36,286 nucleotides of DNA from a virus. Taxonomy: Duplodnaviria > Heunggongvirae > Uroviricota > Caudoviricetes. Numbering within the stretch: position 1 is the first letter of the stretch; each line of letters opens with the position of its first letter. The position numbers and the translations under genes were made by a program. Shown here piece after piece: positions 935 through 36,286 of this stretch. A model generated the notes under the pieces. That model saw nothing but the letters and a program-made list of their open reading frames with translations, was not told the origin of the DNA and did no database searches. The stretch is taken from the IMG/VR virus record IMGVR_UViG_2778261315_000002, one strand, 5' to 3'.

Positions 935-2620
935 GTGAATATAAACGTCGCCGAATTGTTAAATGGGAATTACATTCTGTTATTATTTGTGGTCCTCGCG
1001 CTTGGGCTATGTCTCGGGAAATTACGACTTGGTTCGATCCAACTGGGTAATTCCATTGGCGTTTTAGTCGTATCGCTGTTATTAGGCCAACAACATTTCA
1101 GCATTAACACCGACGCGCTTAATCTTGGCTTTATGCTGTTTATTTTCTGCGTCGGGGTCGAAGCCGGACCGAACTTTTTTTCCATTTTTTTTCGCGATGG
1201 GAAAAATTACCTAATGTTAGCACTGGTGATGGTTGGCAGTGCGCTGGTGATCGCCTTAGGGTTAGGTAAGCTGTTTGGCTGGGATATTGGCCTGACGGCC
1301 GGTATGTTAGCTGGCTCTATGACGTCGACACCGGTTCTGGTCGGTGCTGGCGATACACTGCGTCATTCCGGCATGGAAAGCAGGCAGCTCTCACTGGCAC
1401 TGGATAATCTGAGCCTCGGGTATGCCTTAACCTATTTAATCGGTCTGGTGAGTTTGATTGTTGGTGCGCGTTACTTGCCGAAATTGCAGCATCAGGACTT
1501 ACAGACCAGCGCCCAGCAAATCGCCCGCGAACGTGGCCTGGACACTGATGCCAACCGTAAGGTTTATTTACCGGTGATCCGCGCCTACCGCGTCGGCCCG
1601 GAGCTGGTGGCCTGGACCGACGGCAAAAATCTGCGTGAACTGGGTATTTATCGACAAACTGGCTGCTACATTGAACGTATTCGACGTAACGGGATTCTGG
1701 CGAATCCAGACGGTGATGCTGTGCTACAAATGGGAGATGAAATAGCGTTGGTAGGCTATCCCGACGCCCACGCACGACTCGATCCCAGCTTCCGTAACGG
1801 CAAAGAAGTTTTCGATCGTGACCTTCTCGACATGCGTATCGTCACTGAAGAAGTGGTCGTTAAAAACCATAACGCCGTGGGCAAACGTCTCGCACAACTG
1901 AAGTTGACCGATCACGGTTGCTTCCTTAACCGCGTCATTCGTAGCCAGATTGAGATGCCGATAGATGACAACGTCGTGCTTAACAAAGGTGACGTTTTAC
2001 AAGTCAGCGGCGATGCCCGTCGCGTAAAAACCATCGCCGATCGCATCGGCTTTATCTCGATTCACAGCCAGGTCACTGACTTGCTGGCATTCTGCGCCTT
2101 CTTTGTTATTGGGCTGATGATCGGGATGATCACCTTCCAGTTCAGCACATTCAGTTTCGGCATGGGGAACGCTGCCGGGTTGTTATTCGCCGGAATTATG
2201 CTGGGATTTATGCGCGCTAACCACCCGACCTTCGGTTACATTCCGCAGGGTGCATTAAGCATGGTGAAAGAGTTCGGCTTAATGGTGTTTATGGCAGGCG
2301 TTGGTCTGAGCGCCGGTAGCGGTATTAATAACGGCCTGGGCGCGATTGGCGGTCAGATGTTGATTGCCGGATTGATTGTCAGTCTTGTGCCAGTGGTTAT
2401 CTGTTTCTTGTTCGGTGCTTATGTATTGCGAATGAACCGCGCACTGTTGTTCGGCGCAATGATGGGCGCACGCACCTGCGCGCCGGCAATGGAGATCATC
2501 AGTGATACAGCTCGCAGTAACATCCCGGCGCTGGGCTATGCGGGCACCTATGCAATCGCCAACGTCCTGCTGACGCTGGCAGGGACAATCATCGTCATGG
2601 TATGGCCAGGATTAGGATAA
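935..2620 (+). CDS. ybjL: Putative transporter YbjL (AAE-type permease with cytoplasmic regulatory domains)
   Basis: 561-aa ORF with GTG start ([24 protein letters not shown]...); two membrane halves flank a soluble central region; matches E. coli YbjL from memory. Confidence 0.85.
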
Positions 2621-2732
2621 AACTGAAGTTGCCCTGAAAATGAAATTTTTTTGCACAACCGCAGAACTTTTCCGCAGGGCATCAGTCTTAATTAGTGCCA
2701 CTGCTTTTCTTTGATGTCCCCATTTTGTGGAG

Positions 2733-28138: not shown

Positions 28139-28180
28139 CTTTCCTCCTATGACACCAAAGCAATACTGTATACATGACCA

Positions 28181-28196
28181 CTGTTTATATTTACAG
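28181..28196. promoter_or_regulatory. LexA (SOS) box
   Basis: CTGTTTATATTTACAG fits the CTGT-N8-ACAG consensus exactly and overlaps the probable -10 region of the minus-strand promoter for the small gene plus dinI-like gene. Confidence 0.7.
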
Positions 28197-28290
28197 TATA
28201 TAATAATCTTACTGATGTAAAACGTTTTTTTATGCTCATCAGCCTGATATGCCTGGTATTATTAAGAGCACGAATTGTTAACCCGCTTAA

Positions 28291-30663
28291 TTAATACAGG
28301 TTTCGCCACTTATCATCTTCCTGCAAACGCTGGTTCCGATAGAAGATACGCAGGCCTGCTCCTGATGGAATACTGCCGCCGCGAAGCAGTAAATCGACCT
28401 CTTTCTCGCTGCCATCAATTCCCCTGGACTTCAGTTCATACACGAGCTGCTGTCGCTGATGATCTGTAATTCGCTGTTTGTAGTCTTTAAGCCGTTTCGG
28501 TTTCACAAGGCGTAACCTTGCTGCCAGTTCCCGGCGCTCTTTTTTGCTCATACTGTGCAGGTAATCGTGCAACTCCTTGTCATCCATGCGAGTGATATCC
28601 GTTCTGGTATCTCCATCAGCTGATTTGTCTTTCCCTTGTTGGTACAAATTTTCAGCAAGGGGACAGTTATTGCCACGAGTCCAAGGGGCGCAAGCGCCCT
28701 GGTCGGCTGCCGCCTCCTGAACGTCAACGGCTTTACGAACCATTTTCCACTTCACTGCATGAGTGCAGATCTTGCCCTCTGCAATGGGTGACCAGATGCC
28801 ATAAATACGAATACCGTGATCGCCATAGGCGGTCGGCTCTTCGTTGATTTCATAAGCGGTTCTGATGAGGTGATATTTACGGGGAACCAGTACGCCGCCC
28901 TGCTTCATGATGTAGGTGGCAAAGCAACCAGCATCAGCTGCAGCCAGAATGGCATCAAGGCGCGGGTTATCCAGTACCGGCGCACCTGCTTTTTTGTCAC
29001 CCTGTTGCCTTGCCGCCTGACCAGCCAGCAATCGCAGTTCACGGTAAGCCTGACGCCCCGGAATGCCAAAGAAGCGGAATTGCTGAACACGATGCAGAGA
29101 CGCCCAGGCATTAACGTATTCAGCGTTATCACGCAGAGATTTACCCGTTTCCTTGCTGATCTCGCCAGCCAGACCACGCCCGTCAATGTTCTTACTGATG
29201 TATTTCGCGATGTAGCTTGTTGGCGTACCTTTGCGCGGGTTAATCAACTCAGACTTAAAGCGCGGCCCAGTGTTATTGCCCAGTTCCTCGCGGTCTTCAC
29301 GGATGGCAAACTTACGCAGTAATGCAGTGATGGCGCGGCGGTCTTTTTTGCGCATAAAACACAACAGGTGCCAGTGAACTGTACCGTCATGATGCGGCTC
29401 AGCCACCCGCACGCCATACCACCGCAATCCGGCTTTGTGCATCGCCTTACGAAATGCAGCAAACATGCCGACCAGATAATCACTGCTTTGTCTTACCGTC
29501 GCATTTGTCCAAGTTGGGTTGGGCCTGCCATTATTTAGCGTGGAATGGAAACGTGACGGACAGGTGATGGTGTAGAAAACGGCGCAGTCACCGCGCATTT
29601 CCGCGATAAGCTCCAGGCCTTTAACACAGGCCATCATCTCATTGCGGCGATGCGCAGGGTTGCTGCTGCTGGCGTTTACCACATCCTCCATGTCCAGCGT
29701 GTCGCCGTCTTCGTTCACCAGTTCATGAGAACGAAAAAACTCCAGCGACTTACGGCGCTGCTCACGTTTATGCATCACGGCTTCATAGCTGACATAGGGA
29801 GATGCTTTTTTGCTGACCAGGCAGACAGCACGCAACTGCTCTTCCCGCCATTCGCAACGCATCTTCCATAATTTCCGGTACCACCAGTCAGCGCACAACA
29901 TACGCGCCAGCGAACCCGGAATGAGTTCATAGGGCACGGGTTTACGGCGGTTTCTTTTCCGGCGGAGTTGCTCAAACGCAGGCGGGATGACATCCAGACG
30001 CAGGGTTTCCGCTGCCACCTTTTCCCATGTCTTGCGGATTTCTTCTGGCTTAACGTCATCGGTGACATACAAATCGCCACAAGCTGCATCAAGGCACATG
30101 CTCATATGCGCAGCTACCAGGGTGGACAGGCGTTTCACCTGATCCTGACTCATTTCAGGCAGGATCAGCAGGCCGTCCAGCCCTTCATGGCTTGCCATAA
30201 AGCGAAAAGAAGTGGATAGCTGACAGTCGCGTACATGCTCCAGCCGTTCCAGACATGGCTTAATCGTCTCACGCAAATAGCGGGAATAAGCCTTTGGCCT
30301 GCCCAGGCTGCTGATGTATTCAATACGTTGCATCAGCGGCTTGCTGATATGGGAAGGCTGGGCATTGACGTCCGCCAGAATGACCATATCTGGATTAAAA
30401 CGCTGCTGCTCATGCGCCAGCTTTGCCCGACTAATGAGCTTATCCTGCTCCATTTCGCGCTGGACAGGATCACGGGATTCATTAAAGAAATAACGCTCCC
30501 AGACCTGATCACTCAGTGCCTCGCGGCGCAGCTGTTCCTGCTCGTTATCGGCAGCGTACAGAGCGATCAGGTTTGAAAGCGCAGAAACTGAAGATTGCTC
30601 TTCTGTCTCTACGTAAGGATTGATTGCTTTTTTCTCAGCATTCCAGGAATAGCTGTAGTTCAT
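28291..30663 (-). CDS. A: Replication initiation endonuclease A (rolling-circle initiator, HUH motif)
   Basis: About 790 aa from the ATG at 30663 (the track ORF extends to a TTG at 30714); HUH-like VHWHLLCF motif and downstream Tyr-containing region (YIAKYISK); P2 gpA position and similarity. Confidence 0.85.
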
Positions 30664-31493
30664 TACGCAATCTCCAGTTCGAGCTGTGAAGGCTGCAAAC
30701 CATTCGACAGCCAATCAGAAACTGAAGGTGGGCGAACAGCTTCAATTGCACCTTTTAAAATTGCGCAACGGTTTTTCAGAATGACAGCTTTCAGCTCCTT
30801 TTCCGTCAGATTGCGCGAATACTCAGCCTCCTGAATAGCCCGCGTCAGCTCAGGATATTTGCTATTAAATTTGGGGACATTGCAGGCAAGATTTGTACTG
30901 TCGGCAGTCGCCAGTGGGTAATTTCCCAACACACGACCGTCAAGCATGCGCAAACCATGAACAGCTGTTTTGAAATTGTGTCGGCAATAAATTGCTTCAA
31001 AAGCGTCCTGCATACGACGATGCCAGTGCGCAGTTCTGATAGCCGCATATTCACCAGACGATCCAAAGCAGACACGAGGCCATTCACGACATAGCTCGAT
31101 AAGCCGATCGATTGACTCGTGCAGATGCCAGACCGGAGTTGCCTTCCCGTAGAACATTTTCGGAACTTCGTTTATCAGGGCATCATTGTCACGTTCACCT
31201 CCGTCCACAACATCAGGAATGACAAAAAAAGCGACCTTAGGATGGTGGTAATAGTTCAGGAGCCATTTATAAAAATCACTCCAGTTAATTTTTAGCCCAC
31301 GCACCCATGCAGAAAATGCGCCGTTATCAATGCCGACGACCTGAGCGTGCTGAATGGACGCCGCAATCTGATCTGGTCGTACATAGGATACGAAAGCGCC
31401 AGCTCCGCTCACCGCAATACGATGAACGTCGCCAGCACTTCCCCAGACAGGCGTCCCATGGAAATGATGAATTCCGTGGTGCATTTCTTTCAC
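30663..31493 (-). CDS. Hypothetical protein between dam and A; possible TIM-barrel transglycosylase-like (TGT/DpdA-like) DNA-modification enzyme, speculative
   Basis: 276-aa ORF overlapping both neighbours (GTGA with the dam stop, TAATG with the A start). Motifs [17 protein letters not shown] and LATADST loosely parallel the three Asp-containing motifs of tRNA-guanine transglycosylases; this is a weak, by-eye resemblance only. Confidence 0.3.
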
Positions 31494-33381: not shown

Positions 33382-33891
33382 TCACAGCAAACCGAATGAA
33401 GCACCGAGGCCAGTCACGGTATCAACTGCACTCGCCATCGCAGGATTAGCCTGTAAACGGGCCTGCAATGAAACAGCAGCCAGCGCCATCAGTCGTGTAA
33501 CAGAGTTAATGCTGCTGATCGCATCACGACGGCCTGCACTGGTTTTTACATCGCCAGAAACCGCACCTGCCGCGACACGCCCTATCTCTGCAGTTGCACT
33601 CATGACGTAATGCGGCAGTTTCTCTTTTGCCACCTCATTAATCGGTACACATGGCAGGCAGTGAATCTGTGCCAGAAAGCCATCTACCAGCGTTGAATCT
33701 TCAGTCAGATCGGTAAGCAACCAGATTTCTGGTGCGGTTAATAAATGAGGTTGAGCTGGGTTCAGCTTGTTCCGCAGAATCTGCACATTCATGCCTGCAC
33801 GTTCTGCCAGTTGCACTAGGTTGTGGCGCAATGCGAATGCACGACAGGCTTCATCAAAATGTGGATGTTTGGAAACTTGGTAATCAAACAT
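33382..33891 (-). CDS. cII: CII-type transcriptional activator (phage 186 CII-like)
   Basis: 169 aa from the ATG at 33891 ([20 protein letters not shown]...); matches my recollection of the 186 CII N-terminus and length; the track ORF begins two codons upstream at a TTG. Confidence 0.7.
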
Positions 33892-33923
33892 GGTCAATGC
33901 CTCTGATGTATTTCAGAATCGAA

Positions 33924-34145
33924 CTAATTAAGGTTTAGATTGCATTCTGAAAGCGCATCAACGGTCATGGCTGCTATGTTGATCATCACTTTTTCACGTT
34001 TTTTATCTTTGCGCAGACGGTGACGGATAAGGCGTCCGTCAGCCAACATGTCATTGATGGTATCGATGGACAGCCCTGTCAGCTCGCTATAGCGTTCAAT
34101 AGTCACATGAGGCGTGGTAAGAGTGATTGAAATGTTAGGTCTCAT
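33924..34145 (-). CDS. Apl/Cox-type excisionase and early regulator
   Basis: 73-aa basic protein; first gene of the early operon, divergent from cI, in the position of 186 apl and P2 cox. Confidence 0.55.
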
Positions 34146-34264
34146 GATGCAACATTCCTCGTTTAATGATGATTAATCAGGACGAATACGGATCGTTTGT
34201 ATTTTGTGAACACCATAAACATACGATCGCACATTGAAATCGTCAAGATAAAAGTTCACTTGGA
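34146..34264. promoter_or_regulatory. Lysis-lysogeny switch region (early and repressor promoters, operators)
   Basis: 119-bp intergenic region between divergently oriented apl-like and cI-like genes. In 186 and P2 the two promoters here are face-to-face; operators not mapped. Confidence 0.5.
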
Positions 34265-34270
34265 GTGACC

Positions 34271-34840
34271 ATGAATTTGGAGAAAGGCGGACGAGGCGCT
34301 ATAGAGCGCATGGTAGAAGCTTATGGATTCAAAACTCGACAGGCGTTGTGCGATCATTTAGGAATCTCTAAAAGTACACTCGCCACACGCTACATGCGTG
34401 ACTCATTCCCAGCAGAATGGGTAATCCAGTGCGCCCTTGAAACGGGCACCTCGCTTAATTGGCTCACAACCGGACATGGTTCAAAGCAAACTTCAGGTAA
34501 TACAAATACTATGGAAGTTGCTAAATATGTATTATCTGATGGTGCCTTGCGTGAAGACGGTTTTTATATTTTTGATAAGGGATTTCTACCCTCTACGTTT
34601 AAAAAACCTTTTGTCATCACAGATAACAATTCTGAATTTATTTGTGATAAAGAATTTGATGATATACGTGACGGTAAATGGGTAATAAGTATTGATGGCG
34701 AAATAACAATCCGCGACATTACTCGTTTACCCGGTGGAAGAATCTTCGTTGAAGGTGGAAACAGAGCCTTCGAGTGCAAGATAGAAGATGTTGAAATAAT
34801 TGGGAAAATTATAAGTTTAACAATTAAGTACGTTAGGTAA
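34271..34840 (+). CDS. cI: Immunity repressor CI (186 CI-like; N-terminal HTH)
   Basis: 189 aa from the ATG at 34271 (GGAG Shine-Dalgarno; the track starts at a GTG at 34265); HTH QALCDHLGISKSTLATRYMR; AT-rich C-terminal domain; position between the switch and int. Confidence 0.7.
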   Translation: MNLEKGGRGAIERMVEAYGFKTRQALCDHLGISKSTLATRYMRDSFPAEWVIQCALETGTSLNWLTTGHGSKQTSGNTNTMEVAKYVLSDGALREDGFYIFDKGFLPSTFKKPFVITDNNSEFICDKEFDDIRDGKWVISIDGEITIRDITRLPGGRIFVEGGNRAFECKIEDVEIIGKIISLTIKYVR

Positions 34841-34855
34841 TACCGGGAGGAAACT

Positions 34856-35047
34856 ATGCTTGGTAAGGTATTTTTTGTGGTTTTATCATGCTCTTTGTTA
34901 TTAAACCCACTAACTACCTATGCTAAAAATTATCCTTGTTCTGGGAAAAAGGGAGGTGTCTCTCACTGTACCTCCGATGGAAAGTTCGTTTGCAATGATG
35001 GAACTATTAGTAAATCAAAAAAAATCTGTACTAAAAACTCGCGATAA
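34856..35047 (+). CDS. Small secreted Cys-rich peptide (signal peptide plus ~40-aa mature part with four Cys)
   Basis: 63-aa ORF with strong GGGAGG Shine-Dalgarno 6 nt upstream; hydrophobic leader [23 protein letters not shown]; AT-rich; inserted between cI and int. Confidence 0.5.
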
Positions 35048-35233
35048 ATTTTGCTTTTATATCTGCGCCTAATATAACAATGAGCCGCAGGCTAACCGCA
35101 AAAGTCACATACTCACATAGCAAAAAATAGCCAACTTCATTATGGCTTCAGTGAGATGTATGGTCGCAGGATTTCATACATTGACACTGGTTATACATAC
35201 AGTAAAAATGCTCTCTATTGGAGGGCATTTTTT

Positions 35234-36286
35234 ATGGCAGTACGAAAACTCACCACAGGAAAATGGCTTTGCGAATGTTACCCCGCCGGACGTAGTGGGC
35301 GTCGTGTGCGTAAACAATTCGCCACCAAAGGCGAAGCTCTGGCTTTTGAGCGCCATACGATGGAAGAAACCGAAGCAAAGCCCTGGCTGGGAGAATCAGT
35401 GGATCGTCGAACACTGAAAGACGTGGTTGAGCTATGGTTCAAACTACATGGTAAATCTCTAACCGCTGGGCAGCATGTCTATGATAAATTGCTGTTGATT
35501 GTTGACGCTCTGGGCAATCCCCTAGCAACCGATCTCACCTCTAAAATGTTTGCCCACTATCGAGATAAACGCCTGACAGGTGAGATCTACTTCAGCGAGA
35601 AATGGAAGAAAGGAGCAAGCCCGGTCACCATTAACCTGGAGCAAAGCTATCTAAGTAGTGTTTTTAGCGAACTATCCCGCCTGGGCGAATGGTCGTATCC
35701 GAACCCACTGGAGAACATGCGAAAATTCACCATCGCAGAAAAAGAGATGGCATGGCTTACCCATGAGCAGATTGTTGAATTGCTGGCTGATTGTAAACGT
35801 CAGGACCCGATTCTGGCACTGGTAGTTAAGATATGCTTAAGCACAGGCGCACGCTGGCGTGAAGCCGTAAATCTTACCCGCTCACAGGTGACCAAATACC
35901 GAATTACCTTTGTCAGAACGAAGGGGAAGAAAAACAGAAGCATCCCTATCAGTAAAGAGCTTTACGAAGAGATCATGGCGCTTGATGGGTTCAATTTCTT
36001 TACAGACTGCTATTTTCAATTTTTATCCGTGATGGAAAAAACGTCTATCGTGCTCCCTCGCGGTCAACTCACACACGTTCTGCGCCATACATTTGCGGCG
36101 CACTTCATGATGTCGGGTGGAAACATTCTCGCCTTACAAAAAATTCTCGGACACCACGATATAAAAATGACTATGCGTTACGCACATCTGGCACCAGATC
36201 ATCTGGAAACGGCGCTCCGTTTCAATCCTCTGGCAACGCTGCCAAGTGGCGACAAAGTGGCGGCAGCGGTTGGCATTACCCCGTAA
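35234..36286 (+). CDS. int: Tyrosine integrase (P2/186 family)
   Basis: 350 aa from the ATG at 35234 (GGAGGG Shine-Dalgarno); C-terminal catalytic region ...VLRHTFAAHFMMSGGNILALQKILGHHDIKMTMRYAHL; the stop is the last codon of the window. Confidence 0.85.
   Translation: MAVRKLTTGKWLCECYPAGRSGRRVRKQFATKGEALAFERHTMEETEAKPWLGESVDRRTLKDVVELWFKLHGKSLTAGQHVYDKLLLIVDALGNPLATDLTSKMFAHYRDKRLTGEIYFSEKWKKGASPVTINLEQSYLSSVFSELSRLGEWSYPNPLENMRKFTIAEKEMAWLTHEQIVELLADCKRQDPILALVVKICLSTGARWREAVNLTRSQVTKYRITFVRTKGKKNRSIPISKELYEEIMALDGFNFFTDCYFQFLSVMEKTSIVLPRGQLTHVLRHTFAAHFMMSGGNILALQKILGHHDIKMTMRYAHLAPDHLETALRFNPLATLPSGDKVAAAVGITP

Follow-up and report, generated by a model that had tools for sequence, protein, structure and literature searches.

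We analyzed a 36,286-nucleotide stretch of viral DNA (IMG/VR record IMGVR_UViG_2778261315_000002, Caudoviricetes), called the window throughout, and focused on a 63-codon open reading frame (ORF) that lies between the repressor gene cI and the integrase gene int. The ORF belongs to the YdcA family and is predicted to encode a small exported peptide. The final 3 kb of the window hold, from left to right, cII, an apl/cox-like gene, cI, the 63-codon ORF and a tyrosine integrase gene:

33382-33891, minus strand: cII
33924-34145, minus strand: apl/cox-like gene
34271-34840, plus strand: cI repressor gene of the 186 type (Pfam Phage_CI_repr, E-value (E) 2.7e-33; Phage_CI_C, E 2e-28), with its stop codon TAA at 34838-34840
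34845-34850, plus strand: Shine-Dalgarno sequence GGGAGG, read directly, 5 nt before the ATG of the ORF
34856-35047, plus strand: ydcA-family gene, 63 codons and a stop, ATG start (NF007463, PHROG 6000, RefSeq WP_001321204.1)
34856-34924, plus strand: predicted Sec signal peptide, residues 1-23 (Lys4, hydrophobic core, cleavage predicted after T-Y-A)
34925-35044, plus strand: mature peptide, residues 24-63 (40 amino acids (aa), with cysteines C28, C38, C46 and C58)
35234-36286, plus strand: tyrosine integrase gene (Pfam Int_N, E 5.4e-32; Phage_integrase, E 7.1e-22), whose stop codon is the end of the window

A first-pass annotation of the window had described a 63-aa ORF with a GGGAGG ribosome-binding site, placed between cI and int in an AT-rich setting. 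Direct reading of the sequence and the Pfam matches of the flanking genes confirmed this arrangement. The GGGAGG is kept in 78 of the 80 IMG/VR copies of the gene and reads GGGAGT in the other two. The G+C fraction is 0.31-0.39 over 34500-35250, compared with about 0.45-0.55 in the flanks, and the low-GC tract also includes the 3' half of cI.

A segment identical to the window's cI is labeled 'phage repressor protein CI' in RefSeq, and cI is presumed to be the first cistron of the lysogenic operon. The ORF follows cI after 15 nt and precedes int by 186 nt, so that cI and int are 393 bp apart. The 15-nt gap leaves no room for a terminator, and a simple terminator scan found no plus-strand terminator-like site between cI and the ORF. 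There is no partner ORF in 35048-35233. The stop codon of cI (34838-34840) and the start of the ORF are in the same frame, and read-through of the stop would yield a CI-YdcA fusion; this is probably without significance. An Rfam scan of 33800-36286 returned only a sub-threshold match to CRISPR-DR9 (E 0.6), which we take as chance.

Over 1.3 kb, the cI-ORF-int region of the window is 100% identical in Escherichia coli chromosomes, where the host genes rcdA and ybjJ come after the integrase gene (RefSeq genomes). This identity and the host genes after int place the end of the window at the edge of a 186-like (Peduoviridae) prophage.

Family membership, selection and predicted export

The protein encoded by the ORF scored 116.1 bits against NCBIfam NF007463 (model PRK10040.1-2; cut-off 93, E 4.2e-34), with residues 5-63 aligned to positions 1-58 of the 58-position model, and also matched PHROG 6000 (E 4.6e-34). 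The identical RefSeq protein, WP_001321204.1, is named 'YdcA family protein', and homologues of the window protein carry a precomputed assignment to PF27300. The Pfam library used for the scan predates PF27300 and gave no significant match for the ORF; the best hit was the unrelated PF22906 (E 0.068). A match to the lpg1681 family was not significant (E 0.11). Because the family is catalogued and the exact protein is named in RefSeq, the gene is already known in kind. The literature on ydcA reports no function beyond a 3-hydroxypropionate phenotype, which is discussed below. Genes named 'ydcA' on plasmid pS88, in a gonococcal island and in Bacillus are unrelated and were set aside.

The window protein is 57% identical overall to YdcA of E. 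coli K-12 (b1419, 57 aa) and 79% identical in the core. K-12 YdcA is built in the same way: after a leader of ~20 residues comes one domain of 35-40 aa with the motif PCSGxKGG[VI]SHC...KF[VI]CNDG[ST]xSxSKK.C. Against the K-12-type model NF007462, the window protein scored 68 bits, which is under the cut-off of 118 and places it in a separate subfamily. The genomic settings also differ: K-12 ydcA lies between rydC/cybB and hokB, whereas the window gene is prophage-borne and lies behind cI.

The gene is real and unambiguously under strong purifying selection, and its 32-residue core is almost frozen. All 80 near-identical IMG/VR copies are intact and show 14 synonymous polymorphisms versus two conservative non-synonymous ones (V5I and K24R). 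In the core (residues 27-58), the window and two relatives from the E. coli group differ by 8 synonymous and 0-1 non-synonymous changes (synonymous divergence, dS, 0.54; non-synonymous divergence, dN, at most 0.01). Synonymous sites are saturated in the comparisons with homologues from Yersinia, Haemophilus and K-12, where the proportion of non-synonymous differences (pN) is 0.07-0.16 in the core and 0.43-0.66 in the leader. Among the same E. coli-group alleles (window 34925-35020 versus two relatives, one of them the locus of strain 09-02E), we observed that dS is uneven, with 8 synonymous differences in the 32 core codons (dS 0.54) and 0.5-2 in the leader (dS 0.03-0.13). This concentration of synonymous divergence in the mature core hints at recombination between alleles inside the gene.

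A signal peptide followed by a Lys- and Cys-rich region of about 40 aa with four cysteines had been proposed, and both predictions are borne out by hydropathy and by the residues around the cleavage site. The leader has Lys4, a hydrophobic stretch (Kyte-Doolittle 9-residue means of 1.9-2.7) and then T-Y-A. In the alignment, residue -1 is Ala and residue -3 is the small A, S, T or V in 27 out of 27 relatives. The leader sequence varies freely among relatives yet stays hydrophobic, and it fits the classical signal peptidase I pattern. The predicted mature peptide has 40 aa, a mass of 4265 Da, a pI of 9.6 and a net charge of +7 (8 Lys and 1 Arg versus 2 Asp). It contains four cysteines; a fifth, C12, lies within the leader. 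Across the family alignment, K32, G33, G34, C38, F44, C46, D48, G49, S52, S54 and K55 are invariant, while 90% or more of the sequences keep C28 and C58. The window protein thus has the family layout of an N-terminal predicted cleavable leader and one four-Cys domain, PCSGxKGG..HC..F.C.DG..S.SK..C. We infer that the invariant K-G-G and S-x-S-K elements, together with the net charge of +7, would suit a phosphate-rich ligand.

The AlphaFold model of the full protein has a mean confidence (pLDDT) of 76 and that of the mature part 80, with a beta-hairpin in the conserved core. When searched with Foldseek against the PDB, the only match was Dis2 of Legionella (Lpg0823), chain AN of 7MUC/7MUD (7muc_AN). 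For the mature model this match has a query-normalized TM-score (TMq) of 0.62, 38% identity over 39 columns and a probability of 0.85, with an E-value, taken alone, of 0.33; all non-Dis2 matches of the full-length and mature models had a probability of 0.15 or less. Profile comparisons gave the same relative. Searched with hmmsearch against every PDB chain, the family profile found Dis2 with E 5.8e-5, and hhalign against Dis2 residues 21-123 gave 91% probability (E 1.1e-6, 52 columns). A Dis2 homologue (E 2.8e-43 to 7muc_AN) carries the PF27300 assignment, and all four mature cysteines of the window protein have counterparts in lobe 1 of Dis2. On these comparisons, the YdcA core is a predicted homologue of one lobe of Dis2. 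This link seems to be absent from the literature that we searched, although the Pfam grouping implies it.

By cryo-electron microscopy (cryo-EM), Dis2 is seen near the outer membrane as two similar lobes pinned by five disulfides, and that study reported finding no structural relative of it (PMC8486379). Its contacts are the lipoproteins DotK, DotC and DotD; it is dispensable for assembly of the machine (PMC12716638) and is described as Legionella-specific (PMC8486379, PMC12716638). By analogy, Dis2 shows that the YdcA fold can be periplasmic and oxidised and can dock under the outer membrane.

Larger proteins can contain the YdcA domain as well. In the 52 long representatives of the family (>110 aa), the YdcA domain directly follows the signal peptide. 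The domains found after it are Endonuclease_NS (four proteins), PBCV_basic_adap (two), SNase, PLDc_2, VasL and DUF4124 (one each); other long forms consist of two or three tandem YdcA copies or have Ser/Lys/Pro-rich tails. Exported nucleases are the only recurrent enzymatic fusion partner. In Betaproteobacteria, the YdcA domain is followed by a C-terminal motif, CxC...CTGPRGGKYC, that matches Pfam PBCV_basic_adap and resembles the CSGKKGG..C element of the YdcA domain itself.

The cI-int interval and the pairing of ydcA with cI

In phage 186, cI and int abut, and the record annotates one lysogenic operon in the order pL, cI, int, orf69 and terminator. We searched 5,426 complete E. coli genomes with a 1.1-kb query from the locus: 1,108 genomes match and at least 588 carry 80% or more of the query. 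The carriers of the segment include BL21(DE3)-derived and avian pathogenic E. coli. Three classes were distinguished in an evenly spaced sample of these matches. The first is full length, with cI, the ORF and int. The second has cI and most of the ORF and is divergent thereafter. The third has int only, and the shared segment starts ~60 bp before the int ATG (window 35174). A comparison of the cI-int interval in related prophages had been suggested as a check on the ORF, and no sampled match holds the 3' end of cI without the ydcA ORF after it.

Relatives with other genes in the interval were found in several strains. For instance, strain 09-02E (locus L008) has cI, a ydcA-like gene (60 aa) and then a P-loop NTPase (cargo at 3053-4384 of L008) that matches the PADLOC candidate PDC-S20 (E 2.6e-171) and is also PifA- and QatA-like. 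Strain ET846 (L009, 278-2482) has three genes between cI and int, including PDC-M11A and PDC-M11B with an ASCH domain, and strain YJ1 (L010, 1527-2471) has a 314-aa protein of unknown function there. PADLOC assigned the window's ORF itself to 0 families. Because relatives with the same int carry other cargo between cI and int, we regard the interval as a cargo slot, that is, a small defence or accessory slot of 186-like prophages. Unlike the cargo that is swapped, ydcA appears to travel with the cI allele, and it adjoins cI even when other cargo is present. The description of the ORF as 'inserted' between cI and int therefore holds relative to 186, in which the two genes abut; it does not hold in the sense of free cargo, as the ORF is tied to the cI allele.

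The pairing extends to other genera. The order cI-ydcA-int occurs in prophages of three Yersinia species, in which cI is ~34%, int ~48% and the YdcA core ~75% identical to the window. The cI-ydcA arrangement is also found in the Haemophilus phages HP2/S2. In HP2 (NC_003315.1), cI is directly followed by a YdcA-family gene of 60 aa that is unannotated (2486-2668, minus strand); the stop of cI and the start of ydcA overlap as TAATG, and orf1(S) starts 12 nt after the ydcA stop. The same TAATG overlap is present in 15 HP2-like IMG/VR contigs, with variable cargo before int. These data are good comparative evidence for the likely expression of ydcA from the repressor operon, behind cI as its second cistron. 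The constant pairing of cI with ydcA in Peduoviridae of E. coli, Yersinia and Haemophilus, which in HP2 comes with translational coupling, is not in the literature that we searched, nor are the Dis2 homology and the nuclease fusions of the YdcA domain; we regard all of these as leads.

The family as a whole is much broader. A profile search of 1.84 billion representative proteins returned 458 clusters (50% identity) at E of 0.001 or less, and pattern scans found relatives in at least 186 GTDB species of Gamma-, Beta- and Alphaproteobacteria and in ~500 IMG/VR contigs. Upstream of the gene, a CI repressor was found in 5 out of 78 GTDB loci and cybB (cytochrome b561), as in K-12, in another 5 out of 78; downstream, an integrase was found in 5 out of 76, and the other neighbors are heterogeneous. 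Pfam and PHROG scans of the nearest neighbors at 78 GTDB and 65 viral loci revealed no conserved gene partner. The phage contexts seen include cI/int, cybB, tail genes, recombination genes and repressors, and a set of PHROGs of unknown function lies downstream in 20 of 62 viral loci. An accessory copy of the gene is present in unrelated phages of Moraxella, Acinetobacter and Pseudomonas, where it lies in tail clusters or near recombination genes or repressors (Moraxella Mcat, Acinetobacter Vieuvirus and IMG/VR contigs). The chromosomal ydcA of Escherichia and Shigella adjoins cybB and is a core gene, and its close paralogues are single-copy core genes in many Proteobacteria. Taken together, the gene appears to be a stand-alone unit, which some lineages have as a chromosomal core gene and others as a mobile accessory gene of phages.

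A link to conjugation or type IV secretion, raised by the UniRef name 'Conjugal transfer protein' and by Dis2, was rejected as a general association. Plasmid matches come mostly from Acinetobacter and Rhizobium, and no tra genes lie near the plasmid hits examined, which were a phage-like Acinetobacter plasmid and a mis-binned segment of the E. coli chromosome.

Signals upstream of int

The 186 nt between the ydcA ORF and int are structured (z -3.8 by folding) and contain the following features:

35181-35209, plus strand: promoter-like element TTGACA-17 nt-AAAAAT, 10 of 12 consensus positions
35185-35204, plus strand: LexA-box-like palindrome CACTGGTTATACATACAGTA, between the two promoter hexamers, with ACTG/CAGT arms that are invariant in the alignment
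35204-35233, plus strand: hairpin ending in T6 directly before the int ATG (-17.5 kcal/mol, z -6.3), which holds the int Shine-Dalgarno sequence GGAGGG at 35220-35225

The promoter-like element lies inside the segment (from ~35174) that is common to prophages with other cargo and is conserved in Yersinia. It is therefore best assigned, on alignment, to the int module and not to the ydcA ORF. The YJ1 and Yersinia relatives have a perfect CTGT-N8-ACAG core in the palindrome. The arms of the hairpin co-vary in YJ1 and Yersinia; the hairpin was found by folding, and the terminator scan reported no plus-strand site there. The hairpin is terminator-like and/or would sequester the int ribosome-binding site, and it is probably the 3' boundary or an attenuator of the cI-ydcA transcript. 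Overall, the region suggests SOS-controlled expression of int together with attenuation or translational masking of read-through from cI-ydcA. In one reading, the cI-ydcA transcript would be attenuated before int, and int would have an SOS-responsive promoter of its own, whose transcript would start in the hairpin loop, leaving the ribosome-binding site free. A difficulty is that establishing lysogeny in the absence of SOS requires Int as well, so that any termination before int could only be partial.

Another LexA-box-like site, CACTGTTTATATTTACAGTA, was observed at 28179-28198 (3 mismatches to the consensus, with none expected by chance). The site is located just past the replication gene (28291-30714, minus strand) and on the upstream side of small minus-strand ORFs, and by analogy it probably corresponds in position to the LexA-controlled p95/tum promoter of phage 186.

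Possible roles and comparison with known systems

We consider that the prophage gene is best explained as encoding a periplasmic mini-protein that is expressed in lysogens and acts in the envelope, a general reading that we consider likely; together with the role proposed below, the explanation as a whole is somewhat more likely than not. The gene would be transcribed with cI from the lysogenic promoter and thus be made continuously in lysogens. Given the operon annotated in 186 (pL, cI, int, orf69), co-expression with the repressor is the natural expectation. By folding, the first strong hairpin with T6 comes only after the ydcA ORF and not between cI and the ORF. The precursor would then be exported by Sec and cleaved after Ala23 to give a 4.3-kDa peptide with a net charge of +7, in which the Dsb system would form two disulfides. 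The peptide would stay in the periplasm and bind an anionic or outer-membrane-proximal partner.

What this would bring to the prophage is a more tentative matter. Because exported nucleases are the sole recurrent enzymatic fusion partners of the YdcA domain, DNA itself, or the point at which it passes through the envelope, is the most likely class of ligand. The prophage would then benefit most probably from interference with incoming foreign DNA or phage (superinfection exclusion), which is favored by the nuclease fusions, the cargo-slot context and the repeated capture of the gene by unrelated temperate phages. Such an exclusion or DNA-related role is possible, and we put it forward with the odds against it; we know of no exclusion phenotype for any YdcA-family member. 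A more specific and rather improbable version is that the YdcA/Dis2-lobe is a disulfide-locked basic periplasmic module that binds DNA or its entry site, that temperate phages of several families captured its free-standing form and coupled it to their repressor gene, and that this phage copy constantly blocks incoming DNA in lysogens. If so, the periplasmic block would amount to superinfection exclusion or to inhibition of natural transformation that could delete the prophage. All matches in phage databases outside E. coli are in Haemophilus, Moraxella, Acinetobacter and Pseudomonas. These are naturally transformable genera, which is consistent with a blocker of DNA entry.

Several observations weigh against an envelope protein made in lysogens with a role in exclusion. 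The promoter pL was not located by a consensus scan, and the pR-like promoter that was found is on the minus strand. The family is mostly chromosomal, and cI or int are neighbors in only ~5 of 78 GTDB loci; because most of the family is non-phage, the ancestral role was probably envelope housekeeping rather than antiviral. PADLOC has no model for a YdcA-family ORF, and in 09-02E the ydcA gene coexists with a defence candidate instead of replacing it. The nuclease fusions make up 6 of the 52 long forms and could equally reflect an envelope-anchoring module as opposed to a DNA-binding one. The partners of Dis2 are the lipoproteins DotC, DotD and DotK, not DNA (PMC12716638). Finally, deletion of ydcA sensitises E. 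coli W to 300 mM 3-hydroxypropionate (PMC7642389), a phenotype that points to envelope or acid stress rather than to phage.

Much of this would fit an envelope fitness factor, in which the prophage copy is simply a second, constitutive dose of the host's YdcA that helps against acid, organic-acid or other stress and has no anti-phage or DNA role. The paper that reports the sensitivity of the E. coli W mutant also cites YdcI-dependent induction at pH 5 (PMC7642389). The core-gene status of chromosomal ydcA beside cybB in Escherichia and Shigella, the predominance of non-phage loci, and the nature of Dis2, a structural subunit at the periphery beneath the outer membrane whose contacts are lipoproteins and not DNA (PMC8486379, PMC12716638), argue in the same direction. 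However, the phenotype is a single report without a mechanism, and a mere second dose leaves unexplained both the repeated recruitment of the gene by phages, with its lock to cI in three Peduoviridae lineages, and the nuclease fusions. We see a fitness factor of this kind as the main rival, about as probable as the exclusion role and likewise with the odds against it.

The first-pass annotation had named a secreted toxin or inhibitor as an example of what the gene might encode; a toxin, bacteriocin or inhibitor released from the lysogen to act on competitors or on a eukaryotic host now looks very unlikely. The peptide is indeed small, cationic and disulfide-rich, as are defensin-like and some bacteriocin peptides, and its gene is prophage-borne and within a low-GC tract. 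But the plain Sec/signal-peptidase-I leader delivers only to the periplasm of a Gram-negative cell, and there is no linked immunity, export, lysis or modification gene, the flanks being cI and int with no partner ORF between. As noted, its close paralogues in many Proteobacteria belong to the core genome, in single copy on the chromosome, and the YdcA domain also serves as the N-terminal module of larger enzymes and in the structural subunit Dis2. Searches for a toxin or bacteriocin-like fold or homologue led to the YdcA family and Dis2 instead: Pfam, NCBIfam and PHROG gave no significant match to a toxin or bacteriocin family (the one sub-threshold Pfam hit was the unrelated PF22906 noted above). 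An outer-membrane lipoprotein of the Cor/Llp/Bor type, anchored through Cys12 and masking a receptor, is harder still to credit. The V-L-S-C of the leader (residues 9-12) is loosely lipobox-like, and one Yersinia homologue is named 'Lipoprotein' in UniRef. However, Cys12 as the anchor would leave a leader of 11 residues, which is too short. It is missing from most relatives, while the A-x-A type site at residue 23 is invariant, and the leaders of K-12 YdcA and of the homologues from HP2, Yersinia and Moraxella lack cysteine altogether. We rejected the lipoprotein on this lack of conservation of C12.

If repressor and mini-protein are made together, an extra periplasmic mini-protein would be expressed from this type of prophage in roughly one in nine complete E. 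coli genomes. The prophage copy is small, non-essential and in a tractable lysogen, and would thus be a convenient handle on the function of the YdcA domain. The practical value lies in annotation and in building hypotheses, not in a new kind of system.

Several known systems can be compared with the prophage gene. Morons such as lambda bor and lom, Cor of phi80/N15/HK022, T5 Llp, HK97 gp15 and P1 Sim are small, envelope-targeted and prophage-expressed, lie in accessory slots near lysogeny or tail genes, and in several cases block superinfection. They are lipoproteins or membrane proteins, with Sim a larger periplasmic protein, and we found no sequence relationship between them and the ORF. 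A second comparison is with the defence hotspots of P2-like prophages, as the cI-int interval likewise varies among prophages with the same integrase. The main hotspots described in P2-like prophages occupy other places, namely the gpA-gpQ interval and the tail region (Rousset et al. 2022, PMC9122126; PMC13586616), and 8% of P2-like prophage defence systems lie between integrase and primase in a 2026 survey (PMC13586616). Unlike the cargo of those hotspots, ydcA is no recognised defence gene and stays linked to cI. The closest structural comparison is with Dis2, which also carries this Cys-rich motif behind a signal peptide, here as CCSKMGGINYC-SSAGRLVCNNGFYS. With its two lobes and five disulfides, Dis2 belongs to a secretion machine, where its contacts are DotC, DotD and DotK, whereas the window protein has one lobe and four mature cysteines and, with no type IV secretion genes linked to it, is encoded between a repressor and an integrase.

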